A stretch of 44,367 bases of DNA from Mizuhopecten yessoensis (lineage: Eukaryota): the NCBI RefSeq assembly GCF_002113885.1, contig NW_018407210.1, positions 160,926 through 205,292 on the forward strand, in the 5' to 3' direction. Positions 1 through 25,796 of the stretch are shown here, piece after piece. Position 1 is the first letter of the stretch. Each line of letters starts with the position of its first letter. Under the pieces are notes generated by a model that searched no databases, was not told the DNA's origin, and saw nothing but the letters and a program-made list of their open reading frames with translations. Position numbers and translations under genes: made by a program.

Positions 1-200
1 CATAACATGGTTTGACAATTGTGTGGTGTAGGTCTGATCACAACTTGAACATAACATGGTTTGACAATTGTGTGGTGTAGGTCTGATCACAACTTGAACA
101 TAACATGGTTTGACAATTGTGTGGTGTAGGTCTGATCACAATTTGAGCATAACAAGGTTTGACAGTTGTGTGGTGTGGTCTGATCACAACTTGAACATTG
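1..200. repeat. Tandem repeat, 49-bp unit (cataacatggtttgacaattgtgtggtgtaggtctgatcacaacttgaa), ~4 copies
   Basis: Unit restarts at 1, 50, 99 and 148; the last copy is diverged. Confidence 0.9.
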
Positions 201-397
201 ATCACGACTTTGACAAAAATCTATATTTAATCTTGTGTTTTAAAGAACGCAAATATACAATATACCTTCAAATATCTTAAACATACAATAAATATGATAT
301 TTCAGTTAAAGGAAATACATATGGAAAAAACATTCAAAACTAACCAGCTTGCAGTAAAATTTCAACATTTCAAAGCTAACAAAACTAAGGCGATTAC

Positions 398-534
398 CTC
401 TGCCACTAGATCCATCAGTTTGCCACACACGTTCACACCCGTAAGTTCCACTGGATTGACTTCCTTCCCATCAGCAATCAGTCCAGATTTGACCTTTGAC
501 ATGGGGTCCAAAACATCTTTTACATCTTTTAAAT
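398..534 (-). CDS. PARP4: PARP4-like exon 13 (start of VIT domain): (N)LKDVKDVLDPMSKVKSGLIADGKEVNPVELTGVNVCGKLMDLVAE
   Basis: Matches human GLQDASGNLVPLEDVHIKGRIIDTVAQ. tttcag acceptor and GAG|GTAATC donor. The gene continues beyond the window start. Confidence 0.6.
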
Positions 535-1039
535 CTGAAATATGATTTTGTTACTATGATAGGAATTCACAAACAGAAACATCACGTAAATGCATTTATT
601 TACAACTGTTTTTTTTGTTTATTTGCTAATTCACAGTAATGTTGCTTATACTTAACAGGACTTGTAACTTTTGTATATAAAATGTATAGTCACATAAAAG
701 GTGTTTATACATTCTAATCCTAAAAATAAACTGTTTACTTGCCTATTTTTATGTTTAACATTTTTTGTTTATAATAAAAGAACACTTCTTCCTGCAAAAA
801 GCTTATTGCCTAAAAGATTTGCCTAACTCTCAATCCTAATTTTAACCAGATGTAATGGGAACACAAATATAGTTTTATTTGTAGAAAAACATTTACCAAA
901 TTATTAATAAAATGTCTTTTTTTCTCTTGTTTATGTTAAAATAAGAATAAAAGAGAACAAGAGGCCCAAAAGGCTGTCAATTGTTGCAGCTCTTCTAGTG
1001 AAAAATAGAAAACATCTGAGCCAATTAGATGCCAGGACA

Positions 1040-1915
1040 GTCAACTTGGAATTTTGGATAGGTGCAAAATGTAAGAAAACTAGGTGATAACCTTAAAGGG
1101 AACACTTGTACTCTGTATGGAAGTCAATCGCTGCAGCCAGTTTTGAAAAAAGTAAAAAAGGAAGCCATCTTGGAATTTCAGATTGGCACGGAAAGTGATA
1201 TCACTTGTTTGGGATGTTTGTTCAAGTTTCATGTCAATCCCTGCAGCCATTGCAGAGAAGAAGTCAAAAATGTCTGAGCCAACCACAAGCCATAACAGAC
1301 ATCTATTTTCAGATTGGCGCAAAAGGTATTAACACTTGGTTAGGACCACATAAGGAACATTTGTAACAAGTTTCCAGGCAATTGCTGCCGCCATTCTTGA
1401 AGTTGTATATGTCTCTTCAAATCAGAGGGCAAGGTGTACCAACTAGAAGCCAGGGAAGCTGTCATGAATTTTTTATATTGGCACAAAAACTAACAACACT
1501 TGGTTGAACCCACACACACACATTTGTACTAAGTTTGGAGTCAATCATCGAAGCTGTTTTGAAAGAAAATAAAACTTTCTCAGCCAATCAGAGACCAAGG
1601 CCAATCTTAAATTCTCAGCCAATCAGAGACCAAGGCCAATCTTAAATTCTCAGCCAATCAGAGACCAAGGCCAATCTTAAATTTTGAATCAAAAAGAAAA
1701 GTATGAATGCTTGGTGGTGACATTCCAGGAAATGTTTCTATTGAGTTTGGAGTCAATCACTGAAATTATTCTTGAGAAGTTAAAAATATCTAGAGGCCAT
1801 GCTGGCCATCTTTGATTTGTGGATTGGCACAAAAAGTAACAACACTTGATCACCCTAAACAGGAACAATTCTGTATCAAGTTTGGAGTCAGTCAATAATG
1901 TTGCTCTCAAGAAGT
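1040..1915. repeat. Degenerate higher-order tandem repeat, ~185-190 bp unit (motifs ttggcacaaaaagtaacaacacttg / ggaacatttgta.aagtttggagtcaatca / gaagtcaaaaatgt), ~4.5 copies
   Basis: The same blocks recur at ~1190, 1300-1400, 1480-1560, 1700-1770 and 1810-1900. Confidence 0.7.
1578..1684. repeat. 35-bp tandem repeat (ttctcagccaatcagagaccaaggccaatcttaaa) x3, nested in the 185-bp repeat
   Basis: Three near-identical consecutive copies. Confidence 0.9.
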
Positions 1916-3215
1916 CAAAATGTTTCTGCTGACCATATGTCAGAAACGCTAAGTCAAAATGTTTCTTCTGACCATATGTCAGAAACGCTAAGTCAAAATG
2001 TTTCTTCTGACCATATGTCAGAAACGCTAAGTCAAAATGTTTCTGGTGACCATGTCAGGTAAGCTAAGTCAAAATGTTTTTGCTGACCTTATGTCAGGTA
2101 CGCTAAGTCAAAACGTTTCTGCTGACCATATGTGAGAAACGCTAAGTCAAAATGTTTCTGGTGACCATGTCAGGTAAGCTAAGTCAAAATGTTTTTGCTG
2201 ACCATATGTCAGGTAAGCTAGGTCAAAATATTTCTGCTGACCATATGTCAGAAACGCTAAGTCAAAATGTTTCTGGTGACCATGTCAGGTAAGCTAAGTC
2301 AAAATGTTTTTGCTGACCTTATGTCAGGTACGCTAAGTTAAAATGTTTCTGCTGACCATATGTAAGAAACGCTAAGTCAAAATGTTTCTGGTGACCATGT
2401 CAGGTAAGCTAGGTCAAAATATTTCTGCTGACCATATGTCAGGTACGCGAAGTCAAAATGTTTCTGCTGAACATATGTCAGAAACGCTAAGTCAAAATGT
2501 TTCTGCCGACCATGTCAGGTACGCTAAGTCGAAATGTTTCTGCTGACCATAGGTCAGGTAAGCTAAGTCAAAATGTTTTTGCTGACCTTATGTCAGGTAC
2601 GCTAAGTTAAAATGTTTCTGCTGACCAGATGTCAGGGAAGCTAGGTCAAAATGTTTCTGGTGACCATGTCAGGTAAGCTAAGTCAAAATGTTTCTTCTGA
2701 CCATATGTCAGAAACGCTAAGTCAAAATGTTTCTTCTGACCATATGTCAGAAACGCTAAGTCAAAATGTTTCTTCTGACCATATGTCAGAAACGCTAAGT
2801 CAAAATGTTTCTGGTGACCATGTCAGGTAAGCTAGGTCAAAATGTTTCTGGTGACCATGTCAGGTAAGCTAAGTCAAAATGTTTTTGCTGACCATATGTC
2901 AGGTAAGCTAGGTCAAAATATTTCTGCTGACCATATGTCAGAAACGCTAAGTCAAAATGTTTCTGGTGACCATGTCAGGTAAGCTAAGTCAAAATGTTTT
3001 TGCTGACCATATGTCAGGTACGCGAAGTCAAAATGTTTCTGCTGAACATATGTCAGAAACGCTAAGTCAAAATGTTTCTGGTGACCATGTCAGGTAAGCT
3101 AAGTCAAAATGTTTTTGCTGACCATATGTCAGGTACACTAAGTCAAAATGTTTCTGGTGACCATGTCAGGTAAGCTAGGTCAAAATGTTTCTGCTGACCA
3201 TATGTCAGGTAAGCT
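1905..3215. repeat. Minisatellite, 36-39 bp unit (gctaagtcaaaatgtttcttctgaccatatgtcagaaac and variant gtcaggtaagctaagtcaaaatgtttctggtgaccat), ~35 copies
   Basis: Period 39 between successive gctaag motifs; two alternating subvariants. Confidence 0.95.
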
Positions 3216-3470
3216 TTCTTGGATTACAGATTGACAAGAAATGTAACAACACTTGGTCAGGACTTCATAAGCAACATTTGTACCAAGTTTGATGTCCATC
3301 TGTAGAGCCACTGATCTACAGTAGACATAAAAATGTCTCAGATAATCAGAGGCTGAGGCAACCAGGTTTTTTTCAGATCAAAACATAATACAACACTTGG
3401 GACAAGAAAAAGATCATTTGTTTTAAATTTGGAGTCAATCATTTTGGTGGTTCTTAGAAATAAAAAGTAA
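3215..3470. repeat. Continuation of the ~185-bp degenerate repeat on the far side of the minisatellite
   Basis: The blocks acaacacttgg..catttgtaccaagtttgatgtc and acaacacttggg..tttggagtcaatca recur. Confidence 0.6.
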
Positions 3471-3694
3471 CCAACTGTCGACGATCAATGCACTCTATAA
3501 GACGGATAGCATAGTCCAATCAGGAAATTACAATGACATTTCAAAGAATGGAAATCATTATATGATATATCTAAAAACAATACAACTTTTCTGCATTCAA
3601 CATTTTTCCTGATTTTTAAAGTAAAAAAAAGAATTACATGAAAATACTTTTGAGAAAATAGGCTATAAAATCAATATTTTCATATCTATAAAAT

Positions 3695-4135
3695 GTGTTT
3701 AAGATACAACTTACTGATTTTGTCGGTTTGTGTTTTAGATACAACTTACTGATTTTGTCGGTTGCTGTTGGGTGAGTATTTGTGTCTATGCTGTCGTGTA
3801 AAGATACAACTTACTGATTTTGTCGGTTGCTGTTGGGTGAGTATTTGTGTCTATGCTGTCTTGTAAAGATACAACTTACTGATTTTGTCGGTTGCTGTTG
3901 GGTGAGTATTTGTGTCTATGCTGTCTTGTAAAGATACAACTTACTGATTTTGTCGTTTGCTGTTGGGTGAGTATTTGTGTCTATGCTGTCGTGTAAAGAT
4001 ACAACTTACTGATTTTGTCGCTTGCTGTTGGGTCAGTATTTGTGTCTATGCTGTCGTGTAAAGATACAACTTACTGATTTTGTCGGTTGCTGTTGGGTCA
4101 GTATTTGTGTCTATGCTGTCGTGTACAGGTACAAT
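3695..4135. repeat. 65-bp tandem repeat (aagatacaacttactgattttgtcggttgctgttgggtgagtatttgtgtctatgctgtcgtgta), ~6.7 copies. Each copy carries a minus-strand A|GTAAGT donor
   Basis: Period 65 (3801 to 3866). The unit equals the 3' end of the PARP4 exon at 4075..4228 plus the first ~15 nt of the intron. Confidence 0.9.
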
Positions 4136-4228
4136 TTCCATGGGTATGGGTTTCTCACTGCCCACAGTGAACTCCACAAGGTAACACATCTTCTGTTGAT
4201 CCGGTGAGTATACTACATACTCATCCTC
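4075..4228 (-). CDS. PARP4: PARP4-like exon 12: EDEYVVYSPDQQKMCYLVEFTVGSEKPIPMEIVPVHDSIDTNTDPTATDKI
   Basis: Matches human EDDEFVVYKTNQVKMKYIIKFSMPGDQ. tgtgtag acceptor; the A|GTAAGT donor lies inside the first 65-bp repeat copy. Confidence 0.7.
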
Positions 4229-4325
4229 CTACACAATGAACACAAATACTAAACAGGTTTTATAGTATGTCCTGTAACAATGAACACAAATACTAAATGG
4301 GTTTTATAGTATGTCCTGTAGCAAT
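4212..4325. repeat. ~47-bp direct repeat x2.4 (caatgaacacaaatactaaa.gggttttatagtatgtcctgta)
   Basis: Visible direct duplication. Confidence 0.8.
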
Positions 4326-4924
4326 GGCTGGGATTGAAGAGTTAAAGCTATTTGTATAGTCGCCAACCTTTTTTGAGAGAGGATCAAAATTAATATAGCA
4401 TTAAAAAAATCACATCTGTTGAAATCCTGTTCAACACATGAAAAAAAATGATTAACAGTGACAAACACATACATGTATATAGATGCCCTTCTCATTTTAA
4501 AAATATGATGCAAGAAGTTTAAAACGAGGTTATAGAGATTTTTTAATGATTAATTAGTGTATTTCATTTACATATAAAAAAAGAAGTGCAACACTAAACA
4601 AATTTCTGTGAGGTTGGTTAGCACCGTGGAAGCAAACTCAACTCTCACCAAATTTGTCACCAGTTTGCTCCAAAATCAAGACCCCTGTAGGTGTCCCATC
4701 AAGGTCAGCAAGAGTGATTAATATAAGTTCATAAAAACTGTTTCATAACTAGAAATTTATAATAACTAGAATATGTCTCACCTTATAAGCCAATGTGCAT
4801 ATTTGGAAGAATAGAAAGGTCACATCAAGATTAAGGTGTATAAACTCTAAACCATTAAACTTTTAAATTGTTCTGGTTGATGTTAAATTGTCTTAACAAT
4901 TTGGTTAAGTTTCGGCAGCTATGG

Positions 4925-5430
4925 TACTATAGACACATTTACATAAAAATAGGAATTATCACACATCTGATTACAATCTGGTTCCTCTATTGGCTCATGG
5001 AACTTATGCTGCAGACAAACTTCAGTATAAAAAACTAACATAGGGCCATATCTTTTTATATAGTGAGGCAAGAGACCCGATTGCAGTACGCAACTCTCCG
5101 CCATTCCAAGATACTAAAATATAGCAAGTTTGGTCAACGTAGGTGAAATACCATGGAAGTTATGCTGTGGACAAACTTTGGTAATAAAAATAAACAAAGT
5201 GCTATAACTCAGTATATAGTGGGTCAAAAGACCCGATTTCAGTGCGAGAGATTCCGCCTTCTCAAGATATATAAATATGCTAAGTTTGGTCAACGTAGGT
5301 GAAATAACATGGAACCTATTCTCAGGACAAACTTCGGTATTAAAAATAAACAAAGAGCCATAACTCTGTATATAGTGGGGCACAAGACCTAATTCCAGTG
5401 CACTGCACACCTTCTGTGGGTGATGCAGGT
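4925..5430. repeat. ~165-170 bp tandem repeat x3 (catggaa.ttatgctg.ggacaaactt.ggta.taaaaa...gtttggtcaacgtaggtgaaata)
   Basis: Three diverged consecutive copies; the reported minus-strand ORFs here are repeat read-through. Confidence 0.8.
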
Positions 5431-5723
5431 ATACTTCAAGTTAAATTATCTGGGTGTGACAAAAGTTTACTGAAAATGTTGCACTTATTTGACCTTTGAC
5501 CTTGAGGTGAAGGTCACAGTGACCTAATTCTAGTGCACTGCACACCTTCTATGGATATCTTTAATGGTTTAGAATTCATGGCCCGGACAAGTTGCGTTTA
5601 GAAAAAGAAGAAGAACCAGAAGAACCAGTACTAATACAATATGTCTCCCTTCATTCCGAAGGAGAGACATAATTATTGTAAAATAAATAAAGTAAAAAAA
5701 CAACCTCTGAACAAATGACTTAC

Positions 5724-5880
5724 CGTGAAGTCTGAGCGTTTGTTGGATGTGTTGGCCACACCATGGACACTGGAGTAACCATTTGGGGCACGGTCAAGTG
5801 TCTGGTCATGCTTGTACAGGTCCATACACCTACCCAGAGCCACTTTATTGACCAGCATCATTCTCGTGCCCCGGCTCTTA
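5724..5880 (-). CDS. PARP4: PARP4-like exon 11 (PARP catalytic): (S)KSRGTRMMLVNKVALGRCMDLYKHDQTLDRAPNGYSSVHGVANTSNKRSDFT
   Basis: Matches human TDGTRLLLICDVALGKCMDLHEKDFSLTEAPPGYDSVHGV. The gtcag|T acceptor is chosen for phase; ACG|GTAAGT donor. Confidence 0.75.
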
Positions 5881-6322
5881 CTGACCTGTGAGTACTTTAC
5901 ACTAGTACTGGACAGACACAATTGTATCCAATTACTGACTGCTGATGAGGTGGGTGAAATGTATATACATACCCATGTAAGCTTATATTCAACTGATGCC
6001 AAGTATACCATCTTCAATTCTCAATTTGACAAATTAAATACATTAATTACTTAATTTCTGAATGTATATGGGTTAAATTCTGCACTTCAGGTTTTTATGG
6101 CTAAGTAACTTCACAAATTCAACGAAACCGAGAACGCTACTTTTAAATTAAGTAGCACAAAAACCTGCTAAACTTAAGATTTTTTTCATTTAAAAATATC
6201 ATAGATACATTTTTTCCAAAAGTCTAAAAGCAGTACAGGTACTTTTAATGTAAATTCTAACAAATCTGCAATCCTTGAACAATGTTTCTAGTAAGAGTAC
6301 CCTAGATATATTATACATTTAC

Positions 6323-6421
6323 CTGGCAGCACTTGCAAAATAGATGCCTGCTCCCAACATGCCAGCATCTGTTCTCTTGCCTCCATACTCATCCACAACC
6401 ATCTTTGGCATCAGTAAGCCT
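6323..6421 (-). CDS. PARP4: PARP4-like exon 10 (PARP catalytic): (R)GLLMPKMVVDEYGGKRTDAGMLGAGIYFASAA(S)
   Basis: Matches human RGLLLPKVVEDRGVQRTDVGNLGSGIYFSDS. ctccag acceptor and CAG|GTAAAT donor. Confidence 0.8.
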
Positions 6422-6904
6422 CTGGAGAACACAATGTAAGCATAGGCTGTACATAGGCTGTACATATGTGAGTTACATTACAAAGAGGAACTACAGTCTT
6501 ACCACTTACCACGTTTTTAGTTTTCCCATTTTTAGTTCAAACAAAACAGATTGTCACCAGTTGCCTCAAACACCAACAAGTCAAATAGGAGCTACATTTA
6601 TAAGATGTTTCCTAAAGGAACACCTGGAGTACTTAGAATTGTTCCAAGTATCATACAAATCAAAGTTCTGACATATCAATATAGTGATAGTATAGACATC
6701 AACAGCCCATCTATATAATAATGACATACTGGTATGCGTCATCTAACGCAACTCAGATCCAAAGACTGACAATTAGACATTCATAGAAATGTGAGAGTAA
6801 ATGTTGTCAGGAGAACTTCCCTATATATATAGTTCACCCCGGTAAAATACCATAATAGTGAAGAGAACTTCCCTATATATATATTTCACCCTGGTAAAAT
6901 ACTA

Positions 6905-6995
6905 ATCCCTTTCTGCTAGGTAACATTTCTCTATAGCTCATTCAGTAGAGCATAAGACTGATACACCAATGGTCTCAGGTTTGACTCCTAGTGGA
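6905..6995 (+). mobile_element. tRNA-derived SINE-like head (degenerate tRNA-Lys-like; A-box-like TAGCTCATTCAGTAGAGCA and B-box-like GGTTTGACTCC)
   Basis: Similar to the tRNA D-arm and T-arm, but the acceptor stem does not pair, so it is not a functional tRNA gene. A satellite follows directly. Confidence 0.45.
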
Positions 6996-7014
6996 GGCAT
7001 CGAAAAAAGTAATG

Positions 7015-7600
7015 ATCTCTGTTACATAGGTGCCCAAGGTGGGGCCTCTGTTACATACTGTAGGTGTCCAAGGTGGGGCCTCTGTTACATACTGTAGGTG
7101 TCCAAGGTGGGGCCTCTGTTACATACTGTAGGTGTCCAAGGTGCCCCGGGGCCTCTGTTACATACTGTAAGTGTCCAAGGTGGGGCCTCTGTTACATACT
7201 GTAGGTGTCCAAGGTGGGGTCTCTGTTACATACTGTAGGTGTCCAAGGTGGGGCCTCTGTTACATATTGTAGGTGCCCAAGGTGCCCCAGGGCCTCTGTT
7301 ACATACTGTAGGTGTCCAAGGTGGGGCCTCTGTTACATACTGTAGGTGCCAAAGGTGCCCCGGGCCTCTGTTACATACTGTAAGTGCCCAAGGTGGGGCC
7401 TCTGTTACATACTGTAGGTGCCCAAGGTGCCCCAGGGCCTCTGTTACATACTGTAGGTGCCAAAGGTGCCCCGGGGCCTCTGTTACATACTGTAGGTGCC
7501 CAAGGTGCCCGGGCCTCTGTTACATACTGTAGGTGCCCAAGGTGCCCGGGGCCTCTGTTACATACTGTAGGTGCCCAAGGTGGGGCCTCTGGTGTACTAG
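7015..7600. repeat. 34-bp (38-bp variant) satellite (ctctgttacatactgtaggtgtccaaggtggggc), ~16 copies
   Basis: Regular period; the Gly/Pro-rich ORFs on both strands are artefacts. Confidence 0.95.
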
Positions 7601-7662
7601 TCTTACGCTCCACAGAATAAAATTACATCAGATTATGTTTATGGTACCATAATTGTGTTTAC

Positions 7663-7800
7663 CTGGACAAAATCCCAACAAAGTTGTTTGGTTTGGATGC
7701 ATGAAACAAAAGGGTCTGGTTGAATATGTCCTTGGTAAAATGATCCTCTTCCATCTGTCTCTGTACCTCAAATACGTTCGTTATGTTCAGCCTGGTATTC
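7663..7800 (-). CDS. PARP4: PARP4-like exon 9: NTRLNITNVFEVQRQMEEDHFTKDIFNQTLLFHASKPNNFVGILS(R)
   Basis: ccccag acceptor and CAG|GTAAAC donor. Matches human IFRVGRVNETTEF..LGNVRPLLHGSPVQNIVGILCRG. Confidence 0.75.
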
Positions 7801-7934
7801 CTGGGGTACAAAAAAGACACAATATTATCTTTTCTTTATTTACAACTAAATGTTGCAAGAACTTGTGTATAACCCATATTTAAATTATCATCCCTTTCAT
7901 TCTATTTAGAATCAAAGATTAAATTACAACCATG

Positions 7935-8855
7935 GAAACATTAAAGTTGTCACAACCTCAGAAGTGTTACATTACCCGGTAAAACTTTTATAACCCCTGC
8001 TTACAACCTCAGAAGTGTTACATTGTCCGGTAAAACTTTTATTACCCGTGCTTACAACCTCAGAAGTGTTGCATTACCCGGAAAAACTTTTATAACCCGC
8101 GCTTACACCCTCAGAAGTGTTACATCATCCGGTAAAACTTTTATAACCCGTGCGTACAACCTCAGAAGTGTTGCATTACCCGGAAAAACTTTTATAACCC
8201 GTGCGTACAACCTCAGAAGTGTTGCATTACCCGGAAAAACTTTTATAACCCGCGCTTACACCCTCAGAAGTGTTACATTGTCCGGTAAAACTTTTATAAC
8301 CCGTGCTTACAACCTCAGAAGTGTTACATTACCGGGTAAAACTTGTATAACCCGTGCTTACAACTTCAGAAGTGTTACATTATCCGGTAAAACTTTTATA
8401 ACCCGTGCTTACAGCCTCAGAAGTGTTACATTACCCGGTAAAACTTTTATATCCCGTGCTTACAACCTCAGAAGTGTTACATTACCGGGTAAAACTTATA
8501 TAACCCGTGCTTACAACTTCAGAAGTGTTACATTACCGGGTAAAACTTATATAACCCGTGCTTACAACTTCAGAAGTGTTACATTATCTGGTAAAACTTT
8601 TATAACCCGTGCTTACAACTTCAGAAGTGTTACATTATCCGGTAAAACTTTTATAAGCCGTGCTTACAACCTCAGAAGTGTTACATTACCCGGTAAAACT
8701 TTTATATCCCGTGCTTACAACCTCAGAAGTGTTACATTATCCGGTAAAACTTTTATAACCTGTGCTTACAACTTCAGAAGTGTTACATTATCTGGTAAAA
8801 CTTTTATTACCCGTGCTTACAACCACAGAACTATTAAGCTTGTTCAAAACTGGTC
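7935..8855. repeat. 51-bp satellite (ccggtaaaacttttataacccgtgcttacaacctcagaagtgttacattac), ~18 copies
   Basis: A period of 51 (= 17 codons) explains the 292-aa ORF at 8023..8901 as an in-frame repeat artefact. Confidence 0.9.
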
Positions 8856-8864
8856 TCGCAACCA

Positions 8865-8990
8865 TAAAAGTTTCTTTAGAACAAATACTCCTAGAACATG
8901 AATTTACACTTCAAAGCATGTTTAGAACAAGTACTCCTAGAACATGAATATACATTTCAAAGCATGTTTAGAACCAGAACTCATAGAAAC
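8865..8990. repeat. ~46-bp repeat x2.7 (gaacaa.tactcctagaacatgaat.tacatttcaaagcatgttta)
   Basis: Direct repetition. Confidence 0.8.
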
Positions 8991-9106
8991 ACGATTCTTT
9001 TCCATTTTATTTTTTAATTTAATTTTTGCAAAGATTTATTATAATATCTCTTTTTTTTTCGCAAGGAGAACCATTCACTATGTTGAAGCCCCATTTTGTT
9101 ATTTAA

Positions 9107-9716
9107 AGCTATAAGCTAAAACAAAGAACTGCTATAATTAGCTAAAACAAAGAACTGCTATAAGCTAGAACAAAGAACTGCTATAAGCTAAAACAAAGAA
9201 CTGCTATAAGCTAAAACAAAGAACTGCTATAAGCTAAAACAAGGAACTGCTATTAGCTAAAACAAAGAACTACTATAAGCTAAAACAGAGAACTGCTATA
9301 AGCTAAAACAGAGAACTACTTTAAGCTAAAACAAAGACCTGCTATAAGCTAAAACAAGGAACTGCTATAAGCTAAAACAAAGAACTGTTATATAAGCTAA
9401 AACAGAGAACTGCTTTAAGCTAAAACAAAGAACTGCTAGAAGCTAAAACAAAGAACTGCTAGAAGCTAAAACAGAGAACTACTTTAAGCTAAAACAAAGA
9501 ACTGCTATAAGCTAAAACAAATAACTGCTATAATTAGCTAAAACAAAGAACTGCTAAATTAGCTAAAACAAAGAACTGCTATAAGCTAAAATAAAGAACT
9601 GCTATAAGCTAAAACAAAGAACTGCTATAATTAGCTAAAACAAAGAACTGCTATAATTAGCTTAAACAAAGAACTGCTATAAGCTAAAACAAGGAACTGC
9701 TATAAGCTAAAAACAC
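9107..9716. repeat. 23-bp microsatellite-like array (gctaaaacaaagaactgctataa), ~26 copies, with occasional 26-bp variants
   Basis: Regular period. Confidence 0.95.
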
Positions 9717-9769
9717 TGAAGCCTGTCTGTTTCCACATCAAGTACATTAGAACAGAACACGGTACATAC

Positions 9770-9930
9770 CCATCCAGAGACTTGTTGACCAGTGCCTTGA
9801 CTGTCTTGTACACATGGTGATCAGGGGCCCTGTGTTCTATCTGACACCTAAGGGCACGGTATTTGGACTCTGTCGACCCTCGGAGTGACCAGCCAGTGGA
9901 CTCACTGACCGTCAGCATGTCTTTCATCAC
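9770..9930 (-). CDS. PARP4: PARP4-like exon 8: VMKDMLTVSESTGWSLRGSTESKYRALRCQIEHRAPDHHVYKTVKALVNKSLDG
   Basis: ttggtag acceptor and GG|GTATGT donor. Matches human LIRDMVNVCETNLSKPNPPSLAKYRALRCKIEH. Confidence 0.8.
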
Positions 9931-10246
9931 CTACCAACCATTGAAGTAGAACCTGTTAAACTTGACCTCAAAGGATTTTATGTTTTCCCAAACTGAACCC
10001 AAATATCCAGATAGTTGAAATATTTTGCTTGGACCAAGCATGAAATATTTTTCTTAATCATGATAGTTTACAAATAAAGTTGAGCAGGATTCAGGGTAGC
10101 ATATTTCATTTTTAACCTTTTCCTTGAAAAAACAATAATAAAACTGACATGGTACTATGGACCAGGAGTACCTAATACATGTATCTATTGTTTGATTGAC
10201 AGCCAGCAATAAGTGACACAGATCTCTGTTGTATGAGTACTATGAA

Positions 10247-10690
10247 CTAGTAGAACCTACCTGACAAAGATCCTGTTCCGTAGACAACCAGGCGTTTTTG
10301 ATACAATTGGCTGTTGTGTCTGTAATGTGTACTAGTAGAACCTATCTGACAAAGATCCTGTTCCGTAGACAACCAGGCGTTGTTGATACAGTTGGCTGTT
10401 GTGTCTGTAATGTGTACTAGTAGAACCTATCTGACAAAGATCCTGTTCCGTAGACAACCAGGCGTTGTTGATACAGTTGGCTGTTGTGTCTGTAATGTGT
10501 ACTAGTAGAACCTATCTGACAAAGATCCTGTTCCGTAGACAACCAGGCGTTGTTGATACAGTTGGCTGTTGTGTCTGTAATGTGTACTAGTAGAACCTAT
10601 CTGACAAAGATCCTGTTCCGTAGACAACCAGGCGTTGTTGATACAGTTGGCTGTTGTGTCTGTAATGTGTACTAGTAGAACCTACCTGAC
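10247..10690. repeat. 85-bp tandem repeat, 5+ copies, duplicating the 3' end of PARP4 exon 10686..10844 plus its donor
   Basis: Copies start at 10247, 10331, 10416, 10501, 10586 and 10671. On the minus strand each copy reads ..aacgcctggttgtctacggaacaggatctttgtcag(a/g)taggttctactag. Confidence 0.9.
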
Positions 10691-10844
10691 AAAGATCCTG
10701 TTCTGTAGACAACCAGGCATTGTTGACACTGCTGATGGCCACCTTGTTGTTGTGTGGAAGAGTGGAGTAGAACTCATTGAGGACAGACTGCTTGTCTTCT
10801 GGTTCACCTCTTAGCTTCATTAACAAAGCTTCAGCCTTCTCAAT
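10686..10844 (-). CDS. PARP4: PARP4-like exon 7: IEKAEALLMKLRGEPEDKQSVLNEFYSTLPHNNKVAISSVNNAWLSTEQDLCQ
   Basis: ttttag acceptor and CAG|GTAGGT donor. Matches human SKAEGILLLVKAALKNGE..EFYRLIPHKG..KKADLCQ. Confidence 0.75.
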
Positions 10845-10974
10845 CTAAAACATCCCATAAAAACCTAATTTTCCAGTGGATAAGGTCAAATCACATTCTG
10901 GATCAGTCTCAATTCATAGTGTTCTGGCTTATTACATTAATTTGTTACTAATCCATTTAATTCATCATTTCATT

Positions 10975-11360
10975 GGAGCACATTCATGAAACAGCATAGT
11001 ACTGGAGGTCAAGGTCAAAAGGTCAAATTGAGGTAACAATGACCTCATATTAGGATATTTTTTATTTTAAATAAGGCTTTTCCATGATGTACTTATATAC
11101 AACATTTGATCCCAATTCATGAAACAGTGGCTGAATAATGCTCTTACCACCAATATTTCAGTATTTGAGGTCAAGGTCAGTCAAGGTCCCATGATGTTCA
11201 TATGTACAAAGTTTGATGCCTATTCATGAAACAACATCAAAGATATGCTCTGAAAACCATCATTATAGTACTTGAGGTCAAAGTCAAAGGTCAAATTGAG
11301 GTCACATTGACCTCATGTTAGGATGTGACACACCACTTCCCCATGATGCACTTATGATAC
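10975..11360. repeat. ~125-bp degenerate tandem repeat x3, rich in AGGTCA direct repeats (gaggtcaaggtcaaa..ggtcaaattgaggtcacattgacctcat)
   Basis: Each copy has a catgaaaca..gaggtcaaggtca core. Confidence 0.75.
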
Positions 11361-11472
11361 CTGGACAAATCAAATACTATATGCCCCTTACTTTTGTCAA
11401 AGCAGGAGTATAAGCATGGGGATAAACACATTATTTCACATATCAGTGATGCTGGTACTCCAGTCTTCTGAC

Positions 11473-11607
11473 CTGTTCTAGTTTGACTGAGCTTGGTGAG
11501 GTCAGGATCTCTGATAGGTCTGAGTAGGCCTCCCTCCATATTCCCTCCACTAGTTCACAGACAGGATCAGATAACTCTGCTTTCTCTAATCCAAATGCCA
11601 TCATCAT
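11473..11607 (-). CDS. PARP4: PARP4-like exon 6: MMMAFGLEKAELSDPVCELVEGIWREAYSDLSEILTSPSSVKLEQ
   Basis: tgtcag acceptor and CAG|GTCAGA donor. Matches human SQEVSDLVEMIWAEALGHLEHMLL. Confidence 0.65.
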
Positions 11608-11872
11608 CTGACAAACAGAATAATTCAATTTATCATTGTTCATTAAAGTAATTCTTTTAAATTATTATGCATAATTATGAAAACTGAAAATCAATAAAAA
11701 AAGCTTAACCGAAATCTCTTCTTGTCACAGACTGCACTTTGAGACCTTCAGGCCTCATACTAATTTTTTTTTTTAAATCTAACATATTTTAAATTTCCGT
11801 TTCAAACATAAGAATGACAGAAAACTAAAGACTGCTTGGTTCAAACTTGTTGATTTTCAGAGATTTGCTAAC

Positions 11873-12034
11873 CTTTTGAAAGTTCAATGTGCCTATGCCC
11901 CTGGGAGGTGCATCATGGGATACCTCCATTAGATTTGGGTGTTCCGTCTGCTGTTTGTACAAGAAACTGTACATCTTGGTAGCTTCGTCTGATGTCTCAA
12001 CATAATAACATTCCATTTTCTCAGGTTTTCCTTC
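11873..12034 (-). CDS. PARP4: PARP4-like exon 5: EGKPEKMECYYVETSDEATKMYSFLYKQQTEHPNLMEVSHDAPPRGIGTLNFQK
   Basis: gatag acceptor and AAG|GTTAGC donor; phase 0 to 0. Confidence 0.6.
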
Positions 12035-12534
12035 CTATCAAGTAAGTTAAGAAATGTTATAAACATTTTTTTACATGTATCATACTTAGAGGATCTTAAG
12101 TGAATTTTCATATCATACAGAATTTGAATTTGTGAAATGAGTGTAAGAATTCTTTATTTTATTGAGACTCTAGTGAGTTGAAATGACACATTTGTGATGA
12201 CCTTCATAATATAAACCTCATATGAAATGGAAAGGCACGTAAGATTCTGTTTACCCAACATTCTTGAAAACAACACTATCTTAGGTTGACTTGAATTTAA
12301 AATATCAACATTCTCTATCCAACTTGTTTTCTTTTAACTGTAACATCACAATGGAAATGGAAGTCTGTGACATCAGGAAGTTATGACATCACTATGGAAA
12401 CAATAGGAATATATAGCCAATCACAGCTCATGCACCTAAAGGTGAAATTTAATGTGTATTCGTAACACAATAACGCAGTTAGTGTTATACACTGATACAA
12501 GCAGGGTTTCTGTATCAGAATAACTTTACACCAC

Positions 12535-13345
12535 TAATTATTTACTCATCTGTCTCATTGAAAATGAGCTATTTGTATTTATTTACTCATCTGTCTCATT
12601 GAGAATGTGCTATTTGTATTTATTTACCCATCTGTCTCATTGAGATGAGCTATTTGTATTTATTTACTCATCTGTATCATTGAGAATGAGCTATTTGCAT
12701 TTATTTACTCATCTGTCTCATTGAAAATCAGCTATTTGTATTTATTTACTAATCTGTCTCATTGAAAATGAGCTATTTGTATTAATTTAACCATCCGTCT
12801 CATTGAGCATGAGCTATTTGTATTTATTTACACATCTGTCTCATTGAAAATGATCTATTTGTATTTATTTACTCATCTGTCGCATTGAGAATGAGCTATT
12901 TGTTTTTTTTTCCCCGCCTGTCTCATTGAGAATGAGCTTTTTGTTTTTTTTTCCCCGCCTGTCTCATTGAGAATGAGCTTTTTGTTTTTTTTTCCCCGCC
13001 TGTCTCATTGAGAATGAGCTTTTTGTTTTTTTTTCCCCGCCTGTCTCATTGAGAATGAGCTTTTTGTTTTTTTTTCCCCGCCTGTCTCATTGAGAATGAG
13101 CTATTTGTTTTTTTTTCCCCGCCTGTCTCATTGAGAATGAGCTTTTTGTTTTTTTTTCCCCGCCTGTCTCATTGAGAATGAGCTTTTTGTTTTTTTTTCC
13201 CCGCCTGTCTCATTGAGAATGAGCTATTTGTATTTATTTACTCATCTGTCTCATTGAAAATGAGCTATTTGTATTTATTTACTCATGTCTCATTGAGAAT
13301 GAGCTATTTGTATTTATTTACTCATCTGTCTCATTGAGAATGAGC
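12535..13345. repeat. 41-47 bp tandem repeat (tttactcatctgtctcattgagaatgagctatttgtattta and variant tttttttttccccgcctgtctcattgagaatgagctttttg), ~18 copies
   Basis: Period 41 (12541 to 12582 to 12623); a poly-T/CCCCGCC subvariant block at 12890-13200. Confidence 0.95.
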
Positions 13346-13434
13346 TATTTGTATTTTGAACAGATGTTCATCATTGATATATATACTAAATTTACAAAAA
13401 AACACAATGAAGTATTGGTAATTTGATATTGTAC

Positions 13435-13569
13435 CTGGATGTGTTTGAGGTTGCCATGGTGTTTGGATACCCTGAATCTGTGGATTTGTCCAGGCAGAAA
13501 GTCCCGTTCTTCAGTAACGTGAACCTCCAGCACACAGAAAAAAATCCTCCCTGCACTCTTTACATATTT
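13435..13569 (-). CDS. PARP4: PARP4-like exon 4: KYVKSAGRIFFCVLEVHVTEERDFLPGQIHRFRVSKHHGNLKHIQ
   Basis: tttcag acceptor and CAG|GTACAA donor. Matches human AVVVELQCSRDSRDCPFLISSHF. Confidence 0.6.
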
Positions 13570-13844
13570 CTGAAACAGTAACCAAGCCAGGACATGCAAA
13601 ATAACAAGTACGGTATTTACTTCAGTAAGTGTATATTTATGTTGACTGTCTTTTCATGAGGAACTTGAGTTCTGATCTAATTCATGTGTGTTACATTTGA
13701 GTACCTCTGTATACCCATTTTATATGTTGATAAGGTGTGGATTAAAAAACTATTTACATGGGTGATAATGCAAAATTGTTCCTTAAAGACTTGTAATCAA
13801 ATAAATCATAAGTTACGTTAGGACTGAAGAAGCAACAGTGAATA

Positions 13845-14710
13845 CCCAAGATATAATAAATTACATGTAACCCTGCCCCGATATAATAAATTACGTGTAA
13901 CTCTGCCCACATATAATAAATTACGTGTAACCCTGCCCAGATATAATAAATTACGTGTATCCCTGCCCAGATATAATAAATTACGTGTAACTCTGCCCAG
14001 ATATAATAAATTACGTGTAACCCTGCCCAGATATTATAAATTACATGTAACCCTGCCCAGATATAATAAATTACGTGTACCCCTGCCCAGATATAATAAA
14101 TTACGTGTAACCCGGCCCAGATATAATAAATTACGTGTAACCCTGCCCAGATATAATAAATTACCTGTAACCCTGCCCAGATATAATAAATTACATGTAA
14201 CTCTGCACGGATACAATAAATTACCTGTAACCCTGCCCGGATACAATAAATTACCTGTAACCCTGCCAAGATATAATAAATTACGTGTAACCCTGCCAAG
14301 ATCTAATAAATTACGTGTAACCCTGCCCAGATATAATAAATTACCTGTAACCCTGCCCAGATATAATAAATTACGTGTAACTCTGCCCGGATACAATAAA
14401 TTACCTGTACCCCTGCCCAGATATAATAAATTACATGTAACTCTGCACGGATACAATAAATTACCTGTAACCCTGCCCAGATATAATAAATTACATGTAA
14501 CTCTGCCCGGATACAATAAATTACCTGTAACCCTGCCCGGATACAATAAATTACCTGTAACCCTGCCCAGATATAATAAATTACATGTACCCCTGCCAAG
14601 ATATAATAAATTATGTGTAACCCTGCCCAGATATAATAAATTGTGTGTAACCCTGCCCAGATATAATAAAGTACATGTAACCCTGCCCAGATATAATAAA
14701 TTACATGTTA
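13845..14710. repeat. 30-bp satellite (ataataaattacgtgtaaccctgcccagat), ~29 copies
   Basis: Period 30; this produces the long minus-strand ORFs at 13754..14599. Confidence 0.95.
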
Positions 14711-14773
14711 CCCTGTTTCAAAGCAGATTCTGCAATGCTGGATGTAAACAAGTGATCTTTCTAGCGTTCTCAC

Positions 14774-14913
14774 CTGTAACACAGCATATTTTGCCACCTG
14801 GTATTTGGCGCTGTTGAAAATGGGAGTGTGTTTTTCCTGTAGTGGCCATGCCTTCACTCCCGCTGGATAGAAGGACGACTTCTTCCTCTTACCAAGAATC
14901 TGGTACTTTGTAG
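14774..14913 (-). CDS. PARP4: PARP4-like exon 3: (A)TKYQILGKRKKSSFYPAGVKAWPLQEKHTPIFNSAKYQVAKYAVLQ
   Basis: Phase-compatible with exon 2 (G|CT). CAG|GTGAGA donor. Weak match to the human ..DFEVAKYNTLEK region. Confidence 0.55.
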
Positions 14914-15691
14914 CTATCACAAAAGTAAACACAAAAACCCTTATATCCTTCATCAGCACATTTCAACTTCAAGAACTATTCATAAACTGTTCCATAATGT
15001 TGATAAAAAAATATGTCTGCTTGTTTGTTTCTTCAGGCAGAATAAAAATCAGATATTTGCTTTTAAATGAAGCAATACTTTTCCTTTGGAGAAATCAAAA
15101 TGATTGAAAATTTGTTTCAAGAAGCCAAATGCAGTAACATAAAGGTAAGATATAGCAACATATCTTTGCATAGACAATGAGTACTATTTTCTATGAGTTC
15201 AAATCCAAAACTCACAACCATCTAAATGGTGTGCCCTTGTTTTAAACATTTAACCATCATATGTACGAATAAAACATTAGTTATGAAAGTAAACTAAATA
15301 CTACTACTTAAAATTTGTCTGTAAGGATGCCCTGCTCCTACACTTAAGAAGTAAAGCAAGGTCATAAAAGTCAAGGTCAAAGGTCAAAGCTACAAAAAGT
15401 AATACAGTATCCTGTACTCACAGAGGAGCATTAGCATGTGAAGTGGCATGACCCTAGCTGCAGTAGTTACCACTAAGGCCAAAGAGGTGAAGCTCAAAGT
15501 TGGAAGGTCACAAAATTGCTGTAAAATGTGCTGTACTCACATAGACACATAGTCATGTAAAGTTACATAGCTGAGTTGCAGTGCTTGTAGTCCATAACTG
15601 ATCTAAACACAAAAGCTGAATCAGCTGGAAATATGTAAGTTTGTTTCGCTTATTTGAGGTACATTATGAAACATTTTATATAAATCTTTAC

Positions 15692-15890
15692 CTGCAATTT
15701 TACCAGAGCCAAGTTTCTGAGACCTTGTTTTGCCAATAACCAGGTAATCATCTGAACAAAGTAGTCTCCCTTCCTCCACACAGTCATACAGGAAGGCAAC
15801 GGACACAACGGGGATGCCATACTTCTGGGCCATCTTACGCTTGTAGCTGGTGTCCGCTTTGGCAGGGTCGTTACATACCACATGAGTACT
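15692..15890 (-). CDS. PARP4: PARP4-like exon 2 (BRCT C-terminal half): STHVVCNDPAKADTSYKRKMAQKYGIPVVSVAFLYDCVEEGRLLCSDDYLVIGKTRSQKLGSGKIA
   Basis: cctag acceptor and CAG|GTAAAG donor. Matches human QCTHIILDNADVLSQYQLNSIQKNHVHIANPDFIWKSIREKRLL. Confidence 0.7.
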
Positions 15891-16260
15891 CTAGGAAAAA
15901 TAAGCAGATTTTGTATTTTACAAATGATGTATATTTCTATTTGAATGAAGTTATATGATCGATTTAAGTGTGAACATGAATTTTCTCATAAAAGTACAAT
16001 ATACATTTGTACATGTACATTTCAAACTACTTATCTAAAAGTGTATGCCTAGTTATGAATGAAATTTGGCAAAGGTTTAAAGAAGATTTTATTAAACATT
16101 CTTATTTTTGAAGACCAACCATGACTAAAGAATATTGGCACATGCAATCTGTTTTAGTATAAGGATTTAATTTAGTAAATCAGCACTTTCTAGAGTTGAC
16201 CTTATTTGTAGTACTTTGACTTCTGGGTGCAAACTTGTTACCTGCTTAAAAGCTTCTTAC

Positions 16261-16392
16261 CTTCTTTGTAACAATGTAGGAGACAATCCCGTCATTATCT
16301 GTGATTTTCTTACGGATTTCTTGTTTCTTTTTGAAGCTGACACTTGTTGTTAGGTCAAGGACAACATGGCAACCACCGAATATTGTTGCCAT
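16261..16392 (-). CDS. PARP4: PARP4-like exon 1 (start codon; BRCT N-terminal half): MATIFGGCHVVLDLTTSVSFKKKQEIRKKITDNDGIVSYIVTKK
   Basis: ACCATGG Kozak context. Similar to human PARP4 MVMGIFANCIFCLKVKYL...GGKFSFSL. GTAAG donor after AAG. Confidence 0.7.
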
Positions 16393-18381: not shown

Positions 18382-18562
18382 TGTGGTGTTTGTTGACGTT
18401 CTGTAAGCGTGCGAATGACTGTGAGTGAAGCATGTGAGTGACCTCGAATTGTTCATGCATGTGTTTTGTTCCAAGATAAAAAGTACCCAAGCTGAGATAG
18501 CTGTCCAGTGTTCTATATTTGTGAAGCGTATGTGTGCCGACTGTACTGGTACGAATACAACA
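18382..18562 (+). repeat. 5' LTR (181 bp, tgtggtg...tacaaca)
   Basis: Identical to 25797..25977. The upstream and downstream flanks differ between the two copies. Confidence 0.9.
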
Positions 18563-18563
18563 A

Positions 18564-18581
18564 TGGCGTCACGAGCATTCC
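18564..18581 (+). promoter_or_regulatory. Primer-binding site TGGCGTCACGAGCATTCC, 1 nt after the 5' LTR
   Basis: TGG.. complementary to a tRNA 3' end ..GGAAUGCUCGUGACGCCA. Which tRNA is not determined; it is possibly Arg-like. Confidence 0.6.
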
Positions 18582-19319
18582 CGAGTCTGTTCGCGGAGGT
18601 CATGGATACGCTAGAATCCGAGGAGAATTTCTAGTGGGATTAATACAAGAGACGTAGAATCCCGGGTAGAGGGTGCGCGCCATCTTTGATTGTCTTTTGT
18701 GTGATACACGTGTTTTGTGTTTCACGTTGTCCCAATGTTTATGTTTTGTGTTTAGAGTTGTATCCTGGGTAGAGGGAGCAATTTATTCACAAATTCATTC
18801 GATAGTTGACCCGTGTAGAAGGCCAACTACTGTCTGATACCCTTGCGTGTTTTTAAATAATAAAACAAAAACCAAAAACGAAACAAACGGAAACGGAACG
18901 GTTATCTTAGGACAATAAAAAAATAAAATATTTAGACAACATTTTATTCGTGGTCACGTTGGTTAGGTGCTCTGGTGGCGCTGTACCAATGGTAACTGAT
19001 GTTTGATTAATTTAGTTTCAAGTGTATTCAGTGAGGTAGGTGTTCTGTTGACGCCAGGCTGCTCTGAATATCTATATATATATTTATTAATTTTTTTTTG
19101 CTCGCTGTGGTAGGTGTTCTGTTTGACGCTAACCCTCGAGTATTATTTATATTAAAACCACAGCTAGGGTGTCGGTTGTTTTTCTCTTACTGTTCTAATA
19201 TGCAGTGTGGTGGGTGGTAATTACCGCTACCCCTGTTTAATAGAAATAAATTTTGTAAAAGGATTTGGGTATATTTTTTTTTTTTTTTTCTCTTGTTGTT
19301 TCTGTGTTAACAGATCTAG

Positions 19320-20114
19320 ATGAACAAGCGGTATGCAGGGGTACTGATCGCAGATTCAAGAGCAAATAATTTTCAAAGATTTGGTCATCCAGAGGATTTC
19401 AACATCAAATTTATAATTCAGAGAGGCGCACAAATTCAGGACCTGGTGGCATTATCAATTCCAATCGTTCGGACATTTGAACCATCAAAAACTTTAATAA
19501 TAAAAGTTGCTGCTGGCATTAATGATTTGTTAAAATTGGAACGGGAGCCAGATGGGAAAATTCTAGTACCGTCAGACAGGTCACCGGACAATATTATTGA
19601 AGAACTTTCAGAATTTAGAACACGTGTACAGGTAGTTAGACCATCAAGCCGAGTTAGTTTCATCACCATCCCTCCTGCTTCGTTAAAAGACTTTCAACTT
19701 AATAAATCCTCCAAACCAATTAACCAAAATCTGGTAACAAAATTACAAGAACAACACAATAAAACTGTGTTGGAGGTAAATTCTAGAATTCACCATTTAA
19801 ATAACCAGACAGTGCCAACGGGTTGGACAGTTAAGTGGGCAGATACCATTGTTCACAAACACAAGAAAAGGAGAGGCCGTGCACGGAAAGTGATTACCGC
19901 TTACCGGTATTCCTTTGAACAGTATTACGATGGCTTACATGCCAAATCTGATGTAAAGAAAGAGTGGTACAAACAGGTGGTTTCTGGAATTCGAGGGGAT
20001 ATTACCAAATTGGAAAAACCAGGAAGTGAGATTCGAATTGTCACCACAGAATCTTCAGAAGAGGACACTCCGGTAGACACTGACGATAAAAGTTGGAAGA
20101 GACTTAAACGGTAA
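19320..20114 (+). CDS. ORF0 (264 aa) in the retrotransposon leader: SGNH/GDSL-hydrolase-like (esterase) protein
   Basis: Block I VLIADSRAN (Ser13), block II RGAQ (Gly), block III AAGINDL (GxND), block V YDGLHAKSD (DGxH). Basic KHKKRRGRARK stretch. Confidence 0.7.
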   Translation: MNKRYAGVLIADSRANNFQRFGHPEDFNIKFIIQRGAQIQDLVALSIPIVRTFEPSKTLIIKVAAGINDLLKLEREPDGKILVPSDRSPDNIIEELSEFRTRVQVVRPSSRVSFITIPPASLKDFQLNKSSKPINQNLVTKLQEQHNKTVLEVNSRIHHLNNQTVPTGWTVKWADTIVHKHKKRRGRARKVITAYRYSFEQYYDGLHAKSDVKKEWYKQVVSGIRGDITKLEKPGSEIRIVTTESSEEDTPVDTDDKSWKRLKR

Positions 20115-20129
20115 TTGTAATACGGCAGC

Positions 20130-20230
20130 GGGTTGGTGATCTGTTGTCGCCTTATCCCCTGCACCGTAGAACTCTTAAACGATAAGTTGAGGTTGTGGGT
20201 TGGTGATCTGTTGTCGCCTTATCCCCTGCC
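20130..20230 (+). repeat. Two copies of a 33-bp direct repeat (gggttggtgatctgttgtcgccttatcccctgc) at 20130-20162 and 20198-20230, immediately upstream of the gag ATG
   Basis: Exact duplication separated by 35 bp. Confidence 0.9.
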
Positions 20231-20233
20231 ACA

Positions 20234-21637
20234 ATGACTCGTATAAATTACTGTGAGAGACAAGACCTACTACTATTGCCGGGTATTGGAGAGCGTCTGG
20301 CGGACAAAATTCTACAAGTCCGTGAAGTAATGGGGGACATTACTAAAGAGGTTCTGTTGGCCATTCCATACCTGAGGCCCACAGAGACCATGTTAAACCA
20401 AATAGACTTTACACCGCGATATGAACGGTTTACTGACATGGGTGAGAACTTGACGGGTGAGCATCACACCTACAAAATGGACCCACCACCAAAGGTTCAA
20501 CATCCTTCACCACCACGACTACAAGTTCAAAATCCAGGACCGTATTTTGACAATTATGGGTATCCTGGCAGCCGCCAGAGAGAACATCGACAGCAGTACC
20601 AGTACACTAATTACCGAGACCCATACGAACAGGAATACCACGGTCAGCCCCGTCAACCACAGTTCAACTTTCCACCTCCAAGGTACAATCCGGGGAATCC
20701 GCCGCCAAGACGTGGACGGGTGGTAGCTCCCAAGACGTTACGCTATGATGGAAACTCCGATTGGAAAGCTTTTTGCACAAAGTTTACTAGATTCACTGAG
20801 GCGGAGAATCTTACTGCTCGTGAATGTCGGGATAACCTTTGCTGGATACTGGAGGGCAAAGCTAGTGAGTTTTTCACTATGCTCTTGGATCGTGATTCAA
20901 CGATGGAATTTTTCGATATCATGTCAAAAATGGAACGCCGTTTTGGATTCAAGGAGCTGGCCGAGACTACCCAAGCACGCCTTCGTAACGCCCGACAGTA
21001 CCCTGACGAGAAGCTAGCAGATTGGGCTGATCGGGTGTTATCTTTAGCTACCAGAGCCTATCAGGATCTGCCCGATGAGTTTATGTATAAACAAGCGATC
21101 TCCACAATTTGCCAGGGAGCAGCAGATAAAGAAGCAGGCCAATATGTTTCTAACCTAAGATTGGGATCTATTGAGGAAGTGGTGGACAAGATGAGACTTT
21201 TTCAACATACAAGAAAGTCTATCTATGGTCGCGACCGTCCTAGACCTTCGCCTGTCGAAGAACTAATCATACAAGAGGAAGAAGGTACTAGTGTCAGCAG
21301 GACATTCCAGCGTAGAGTCCCAAATTCTCAGTCCTCATTCCAGCCATCTTCAGCAACAAACCAAAGGCTGTCAGCCCTAGAAGACAAGGTATCGGACATG
21401 CAAAAATCCCTTAAACAAATTTTGGAGGCTGTTCGTGTCCCAGAGGAAAGGATCAAAAGGAATGTGGTTTGTTATGGTTGTGGCCAGACAGGCCATTTTA
21501 AGTCGAACTGTCCTAATGCTGAAGATAATAAATCTGTGAAACTCCTGGATGCGGCTGAAAAGACTGAAGGTGAAGAAGTAGTCCCTGGATCTGAAGAAGT
21601 TGAGGACTCGTTAAACACCGACAGGTCGGCCAACTAG
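20234..21637 (+). CDS. gag: gag (467 aa): N-terminal HhH motif (LLLPGIGERLADKIL), Gln/Pro/Tyr-rich linker, capsid-like region, CCHC zinc knuckle (CYGCGQTGHFKSNC)
   Basis: CX2CX4HX4C motif at 21469..21510. Sits upstream of pol within the LTR element. Confidence 0.85.
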   Translation: MTRINYCERQDLLLLPGIGERLADKILQVREVMGDITKEVLLAIPYLRPTETMLNQIDFTPRYERFTDMGENLTGEHHTYKMDPPPKVQHPSPPRLQVQNPGPYFDNYGYPGSRQREHRQQYQYTNYRDPYEQEYHGQPRQPQFNFPPPRYNPGNPPPRRGRVVAPKTLRYDGNSDWKAFCTKFTRFTEAENLTARECRDNLCWILEGKASEFFTMLLDRDSTMEFFDIMSKMERRFGFKELAETTQARLRNARQYPDEKLADWADRVLSLATRAYQDLPDEFMYKQAISTICQGAADKEAGQYVSNLRLGSIEEVVDKMRLFQHTRKSIYGRDRPRPSPVEELIIQEEEGTSVSRTFQRRVPNSQSSFQPSSATNQRLSALEDKVSDMQKSLKQILEAVRVPEERIKRNVVCYGCGQTGHFKSNCPNAEDNKSVKLLDAAEKTEGEEVVPGSEEVEDSLNTDRSAN

Positions 21638-25746: not shown

Positions 25747-25782
25747 GTGTGAACTGACTCCACAGTATACAGGGACTTCTAT

Positions 25783-25796
25783 AAAAGAGGGAGGAA
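25783..25796 (+). promoter_or_regulatory. Polypurine tract AAAAGAGGGAGGAA, immediately 5' of the 3' LTR
   Basis: Purine run abutting the LTR start TGTGG. Confidence 0.75.

Follow-up and report, generated by a model that had tools for sequence, protein, structure and literature searches.

At the locus considered here, a tandem array of 85-bp units runs out of an exon of a PARP4 gene into the following intron and takes the splice donor region of this exon along in every copy. Hence, it has to be asked whether the array was really derived from the exon, how it came into being, which of the reiterated donors the spliceosome is likely to take, and whether the remaining copies have any consequence for the message. 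The analysis covered a stretch of 44,367 nucleotides, which is called the window in the following; a slash within a sequence marks the splice junction.

The host gene lies on the minus strand and is, by its domains and its similarity to human proteins, an orthologue of PARP4 (vault PARP). According to Pfam, the exon at 15890-15692 encodes a BRCT domain and the exons from 6421 to 4075 encode the PARP catalytic domain, and the conceptual protein of 497 amino acids matched full-length human PARP4 with E = 2.3e-60, compared with 1.7e-18 for PARP2 and 5e-12 for PARP1, which bears out the PARP4 identity proposed in the preliminary description. Eleven exons could be placed, nine of which (B to J) join into one uninterrupted frame at canonical AG/GT sites. 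Such sites and an open frame define exons B and C (12034-11924 and 11607-11473, minus strand), F, G and H (7800-7663, 6421-6323 and 5901-5724, minus strand) as well as I and J (4228-4075 and 534-398, minus strand). Exon D (10686-10844, minus strand), from which the array extends, has 159 nt with phase 0 at both ends and encodes part of the helical (regulatory) domain (IEKAEALL...NNAWLSTEQDLCQ). Its acceptor partner, exon E (9770-9930, minus strand; VMKDMLTVSE...), was placed by frame and by alignment with the human protein. Exon J aligns to residues before the VIT region of the PARP4-like proteins from frog and snail, and the window ends just after it, with the VIT and vWA domains that follow the catalytic domain in PARP4 located beyond it. 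Among the few eukaryotic matches the encoded protein is closest to that of a land snail (44-46% identity); a homologue search with the 190-aa peptide of the regulatory domain gave no matches.

Upstream of exon B the gene model is less complete. The end of exon 2 (phase 1) and the start of exon B (phase 0) do not fit together (15692-12034, minus strand), and the human protein is longer by about 100 residues in the part that connects its BRCT and helical domains. The phase mismatch and the missing residues indicate that at least one exon was missed in this 3.6-kb interval, which also holds a 41-bp and a 30-bp array.

The preliminary description had named a misassigned boundary of exon D as a possible refutation of its main claim. 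The nine-exon frame, the human alignment and the exon ends in a snail together make this boundary solid, and on their evidence it is not misassigned. Human PARP4 aligns without gap across the D/E junction (DLCQ/VMKDM here, DLCQ-LIRDM in human), and the PARP4-like proteins of frog and rotifer do so as well. The orthologous exon of the land snail Candidula unifasciata begins with ag/ATTGAGAA and ends with TGCCAG/gtgaga, its boundaries falling at the same residues, and the intron downstream of it contains no tandem array. An exon with the same ends that lacks the array argues that the exon sequence is ancient and that the array is lineage-specific and derived from the exon. The intron between exons D and E measures 755 nt, which would shrink to about 330 nt if the array were removed. 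With regard to the snail gene, the PARP4-like record (CAJHNH020006890.1, 5681-7307) is partial and starts exactly with the exon that follows ...DMCQ; exons orthologous to C and D do exist in the 10-kb upstream flank but were left unannotated.

The array itself was delimited by Tandem Repeats Finder to 10246-10726, with an 85-bp unit repeated 5.7 times at 98% matches, no indels and a score of 920. The motif TCTTTGTCAG[G/A]TAGG was found six times on the minus strand at a spacing of exactly 85 nt, and a 40-nt piece of the unit had five matches in the window, as opposed to none in 100 dinucleotide-preserving shuffles. The proposed five-fold intronic reiteration of the 3' end of a PARP4 exon together with its donor was thereby recovered, and all sequence strings quoted for it are present. 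The extent first given to the array needs correction, because its end at 10690 was too short; the array continues about 36 nt further into exon D and starts there at position -41 (10726). The homology extends from this point to intron position +15, whereas upstream of -41 the in-register identity to the middle copies drops sharply to about 43%. The founder segment, S (10671-10726, minus strand), hence comprises 56 nt, of which 41 nt come from the end of exon D and 15 nt from the start of the intron. Three of the 56 positions distinguish its exon copy from the middle copies (94.6% identity), so that the repeat units do include exon sequence, as had been claimed.

Each intronic unit consists of a 29-nt spacer, T (ACACATTACAGACACAACAGCCAACTGTA), followed by S, and the whole array can be written as S(TS)5, ending directly after the sixth S. 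The four middle units (10331-10670, minus strand) are 100% identical to one another and carry the dead donor CAG/ATAGGT, whereas the distal unit (10246-10330, minus strand) shows two private substitutions and an intact CAG/GTAGGT with juxtaposed AG/GT (9-mer at 10255-10263). The base at donor position +1 is accordingly G in the exon copy (10685) and in the distal copy (10260) and A in the middle copies (10600, 10515, 10430 and 10345), just as first reported. When the ancestral states of the unit are inferred from the three lineages, i.e. exon copy, middle copies and distal copy, the exon copy has acquired the changes AAC>AAT and ACG>ACA, both of them synonymous CpG transitions, and the lineage of the middle copies a single change, the G>A at donor +1. 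Divergent edges around a homogenized centre are typical of minisatellite turnover. This pattern speaks for a genuine duplication that is not of very recent date, and for a recent amplification of its centre.

Searches for the source of the spacer gave little. Its best alignment to the upstream exon scored 16 and was matched by 73 of 300 shuffles, i.e. it was not significant; the downstream intron showed a marginal match to the 85-bp unit (reached by 6 of 300 shuffles), which lay in the S part and not in the spacer; and elsewhere in the window there is no second copy of T. An Rfam scan of the region 9000-12000 yielded one chance-level match only, located outside the array; the 85-bp unit is not a known RNA gene.

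Regarding the donors, the authentic site of exon D (10680-10688, minus strand; +1 at 10685) reads CAG/GTAGGT and matches CAG/GTAAGT at eight of nine positions. It received the top score among the 11 donors of the gene with an approximate weight matrix. The distal donor has the identical 9-mer, its flanks from -41 to +15 differ from those of the authentic donor at two of 56 nt, and it lies exactly 425 nt downstream, as stated before. The sequence CAG/ATAGGT of the middle copies cannot function as a donor in U2-type splicing and is unlike the AT-AC donors of the U12 type. Certain models of how a 5' splice site is chosen give preference to the one nearest to the acceptor. The predicted RNA accessibility of the six donor positions does not separate them, local and global folding being in disagreement. 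Reading through the authentic donor leads to a first in-frame stop, TAG at 10587-10589 (minus strand), 32 codons after the end of exon D, and use of the distal donor would thus give a premature stop whatever the phase. The earlier argument that the extension would be out of phase is therefore correct in its arithmetic, 425 not being a multiple of 3, but irrelevant. The stop is situated 326 nt upstream of the would-be junction of the distal donor, and the authentic donor alone gives the open, conserved PARP4 frame. The AG sites inside the 85-bp unit are preceded by pyrimidine fractions of 0.44-0.62, which places them in the lower part of the range of the genuine acceptors of the gene (0.44-0.75). 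A pseudo-exon of 50 or 59 nt in the distal unit was also considered and judged unlikely, because its acceptors are weak and the frame would shift into an immediate stop.

The array at exon D has a counterpart in the same gene. At 3714-4134 (minus strand), a 65-bp unit repeated 6.1 times, together with a 35-bp sub-repeat, takes in roughly 60 nt from the end of exon I along with the donor TCA/GTAAGT of this exon. All seven donors of this second boundary array are intact (+1 at 4074, 4009, 3944, 3879, 3814, 3749 and 3714), GTAAGT being kept in each of the six extra copies. The first one is phase-compatible with exon J and gives a linker of the same length as in the snail protein, and with any later one the extended exon would run into a stop at its codon 60, nine codons beyond the normal end. 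Seven intact donors at exon I indicate that reiterated intact donors are tolerated in PARP4, which weakens the case that the donors inside the 85-bp array had to be inactivated by selection.

Minisatellites are generally frequent in this gene. Of the 16.4-kb PARP4 span (window positions 1-16392), 43% is occupied by fourteen arrays, whose units measure 23-156 bp; exon sequence is confined to the 85-bp and 65-bp units. A common origin of the arrays in the window found no support, their units sharing matches of at most 12 nt. When array seeds were placed at random over the gene with its 11 donors, 0.46 donor-spanning seeds were expected, with P = 0.37 for at least one and P = 0.075 for at least two. 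One donor-spanning array is hence unremarkable in PARP4, and two are only mildly unusual. A 44-bp duplication (2.1 copies, 4233-4326, minus strand) stops 5 nt short of the exon I acceptor and creates two pseudo-acceptors upstream of it, cattgYtacag/GA, which appear at least as good as the genuine cattgtgtag/GA. Moreover, a 23-bp array of 25.6 copies (9108-9712, minus strand) begins 58 nt past the donor of exon E and carries the acceptor-like TTCTTTGTTTTAG in every unit, which amounts to about 25 pseudo-acceptors in one intron; no similarity of this array to any of the exons was found.

Beyond the gene, an apparently intact Ty3/gypsy LTR retrotransposon occupies 18382-25979 on the plus strand; it lies upstream of the PARP4 start codon (16392) at a distance of about 2 kb and in opposite orientation. 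Its gag-like ORF has a zinc knuckle, its pol of 1380 aa comprises protease, reverse transcriptase, RNase H, integrase and a C-terminal PHD finger, and its flanking direct repeats are 100% identical over 183 nt. An upstream ORF of 264 aa (19320-20111) had no Pfam match.

Taken together, we consider it likely that the 85-bp array is a neutral, lineage-specific minisatellite of the boundary-spanning kind known as amphioxus mirages and from intron 7 of F7, and that the authentic donor of exon D is the one used. In this scenario the 56-nt segment S would have been duplicated a short distance downstream, with the 29-nt spacer as filler at the junction, and the unit of spacer and S would then have been amplified by unequal exchange or replication slippage to S(TS)5. 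The central units were presumably homogenized in recent times, while the exon copy and the distal copy drifted. This account of the birth of the array is a model. By precedent, the spliceosome would take the first, authentic donor, which is the sole one giving the conserved frame; the four middle copies cannot serve as donors, and for the intact distal copy the most likely role is that of a silent pseudo-site or of a rare cryptic site with a premature-stop product. The array would have no dedicated function and be tolerated because its first copy leaves exon D and its donor intact.

Several other explanations have to be weighed against a neutral array. If the distal donor were used at a meaningful rate, exon D would be extended by 425 nt and an NMD-sensitive PARP4 isoform with a premature stop would arise, possibly as a case of regulated unproductive splicing. 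The identity of both 9-mers, the near-identical flanks from -41 to +15, the fact that CAG/GTAGGT is the strongest donor type of the gene and the stop 326 nt ahead of the would-be junction are in line with this proposal, as is the activity of some reiterated donors in IFI6 and CBS (PMC1557585). However, the latter genes use the two nearest copies only, while the intact copy here is the fifth one at a distance of 425 nt, and in F7 the pseudo-sites are silent beside an intact first site, and once upstream sites were removed, exon skipping increased with distance (PMC1557585). Furthermore, the predicted accessibility does not distinguish the two donors, and the absence of the array from the snail orthologue means that any such regulation would be very young. 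Hence, we regard meaningful use of the distal donor as unlikely; NMD isoforms initiated by it are possible, but unlikely beyond rare noise. A different idea starts from the observation that the lone substitution in the lineage of the middle units falls on donor +1, a hit for which the chance within the GT is 2 in 85 (0.024) and which runs counter to a purely neutral reading. It hints that intact internal donors may not have been neutral, i.e. that units with a dead donor were the ones allowed to amplify, extra live and strong donors being harmful. Nevertheless, the argument depends on a single mutation that caught the eye afterwards, the distal copy has retained its donor, and the array at exon I has retained seven of seven donors though its units vary elsewhere at several positions, so that selection of this kind appears unlikely, although the hit on +1 is suggestive.

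The juxtaposed AG and GT at 10261/10260, which arise by construction, bring up the alternative that the distal copy acts as a zero-length recursive splice site, CTTTGTCAG/GTAGGT serving as acceptor and donor at once. Exon D would then be joined to the distal ...TTTGTCAG, thereby regenerating CAG/GTAGGT, and subsequently to exon E, and the mRNA would be normal. If true, this would explain why the donor is kept in the far copy and dead in the internal ones, and the excision of the array in a harmless first step could be a general route to tolerance of boundary-spanning minisatellites. The upstream pyrimidine content of 0.44 equals that of the weakest genuine acceptor, exon J, within a range of 0.44-0.75 in the gene. 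We nevertheless find a recursive site very improbable, and the regeneration of the donor through it equally so, since the intron is short (755 nt) and recursive sites usually reside in long ones, no convincing branch-point motif was seen by eye, and the four middle copies share the AG without a regenerable donor, which would be harmful if they were used as acceptors. It could also be supposed that minisatellites of this genome originate preferentially at exon-intron junctions through a junction-linked mutational mechanism, given that two of the 11 donors of one gene have such arrays and that the 44-bp duplication abuts the exon I acceptor. The simulated P = 0.075 for two or more donor-spanning seeds tends in this direction, but it is not significant and was computed after the pattern had been seen. 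Moreover, 12 of the 14 arrays are without exon sequence, and survivorship adds a bias of its own because selection removes arrays lying within exons, so that a junction-directed origin is quite improbable in our view. Finally, the four middle units could stem from mis-assembly or over-expansion of a shorter repeat, for which their 100% identity speaks, and a second haplotype or second assembly of the locus was not found; an exact-pattern scan of JGI metagenome contigs for the motif of exon end plus donor had no matches. Against an artefact, the edge copies bear distinct substitutions, with the two synonymous CpG changes of the exon copy as in an aged duplication, and the gene span contains 13 other clean arrays. 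The S-T-S core, at the least, must exist, and an assembly error behind the rest is extremely improbable.

With the neutral, boundary-spanning array as the preferred reading, the locus is of modest importance in that it enlarges the set of natural cases in which a minisatellite has reiterated a splice donor, here apparently in an invertebrate. It could provide a natural test of 5' splice-site choice with four dead donors and one intact donor 425 nt off, to which the sister array in the same gene adds the contrast of seven intact donors 65 nt apart. Such arrays also present a risk for annotation, because they can lead gene predictors to a wrong donor. The structure is not new in kind, and there is no evidence for a new mechanism or function.

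Judged from its sequence, the array is a member of the already described class of boundary-spanning minisatellites, of the mirage or F7 intron 7 type. All structural features of the class are present. The unit is of minisatellite size and arranged head to tail (the class ranges from about 10 to 160 bp), the first monomer holds the authentic junction of exon D, and the donor is reiterated in the intron, where one of the five copies reads CAG/GTAGGT and four read CAG/ATAGGT. The best-studied relative is the 37-bp VNTR in intron 7 (IVS7) of human F7, the first element of which extends over the exon-intron boundary (Borensztajn et al. 2006, PMC1557585). Its pseudo-donors work when tested but are silent as long as the first site is intact, and when upstream sites are inactivated, exon skipping rises with the distance of the first remaining functional site (PMC1557585). 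Among other human examples, intron 2 of IFI6 (6-16) and intron 13 of CBS use the authentic site plus the two nearest copies, whereas in LMNB2 (100-bp unit) and in PDGF intron 4 (81-bp unit) only the authentic site is used (PMC1557585). The 85-bp unit is close in size to the two latter ones. It resembles F7 in that the first monomer spans the boundary, the donor is reiterated and use of a later copy would disrupt the message. However, the pseudo-sites of F7 all have the sequence of the authentic donor, while at exon D four of the five intronic donors are dead and the farthest alone is intact; the exon part of the unit amounts to 4 nt in F7 and to 41 nt here; and donor usage as well as copy-number polymorphism are documented for F7.

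In amphioxus, mirages, i.e. tandem repeats over exon-intron boundaries, were described for Adh3, troponin C, the globins BflGb6 and BflGb9, and PGBD5 (PMC3087553, PMC3902484). They leave splicing undisturbed according to RT-PCR, the authentic site alone being used in Adh3, troponin C and the globins, keep the AG/GT signals in many but not all units, and differ in copy number between haplotypes (PMC3087553, PMC3902484); a homogenized centre with divergent boundary units has also been found in them (PMC3087553). As in the 85-bp array, the end of the exon and the adjacent intron are included in the unit and the splice signal is kept in some units, and as in PARP4, where exons D and I are affected, a gene rich in minisatellites may hold several such arrays. 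For the mirages, the variation in length was demonstrated by comparison of haplotypes. On a much smaller scale, NAGNAG acceptors and GYNGYN donors likewise have splice-site motifs reiterated by local duplication, but their alternative sites lie a few nucleotides apart and often remain in frame (PMC2423196), whereas the alternatives at exon D are 85-425 nt away and every one of them leads to a stop.
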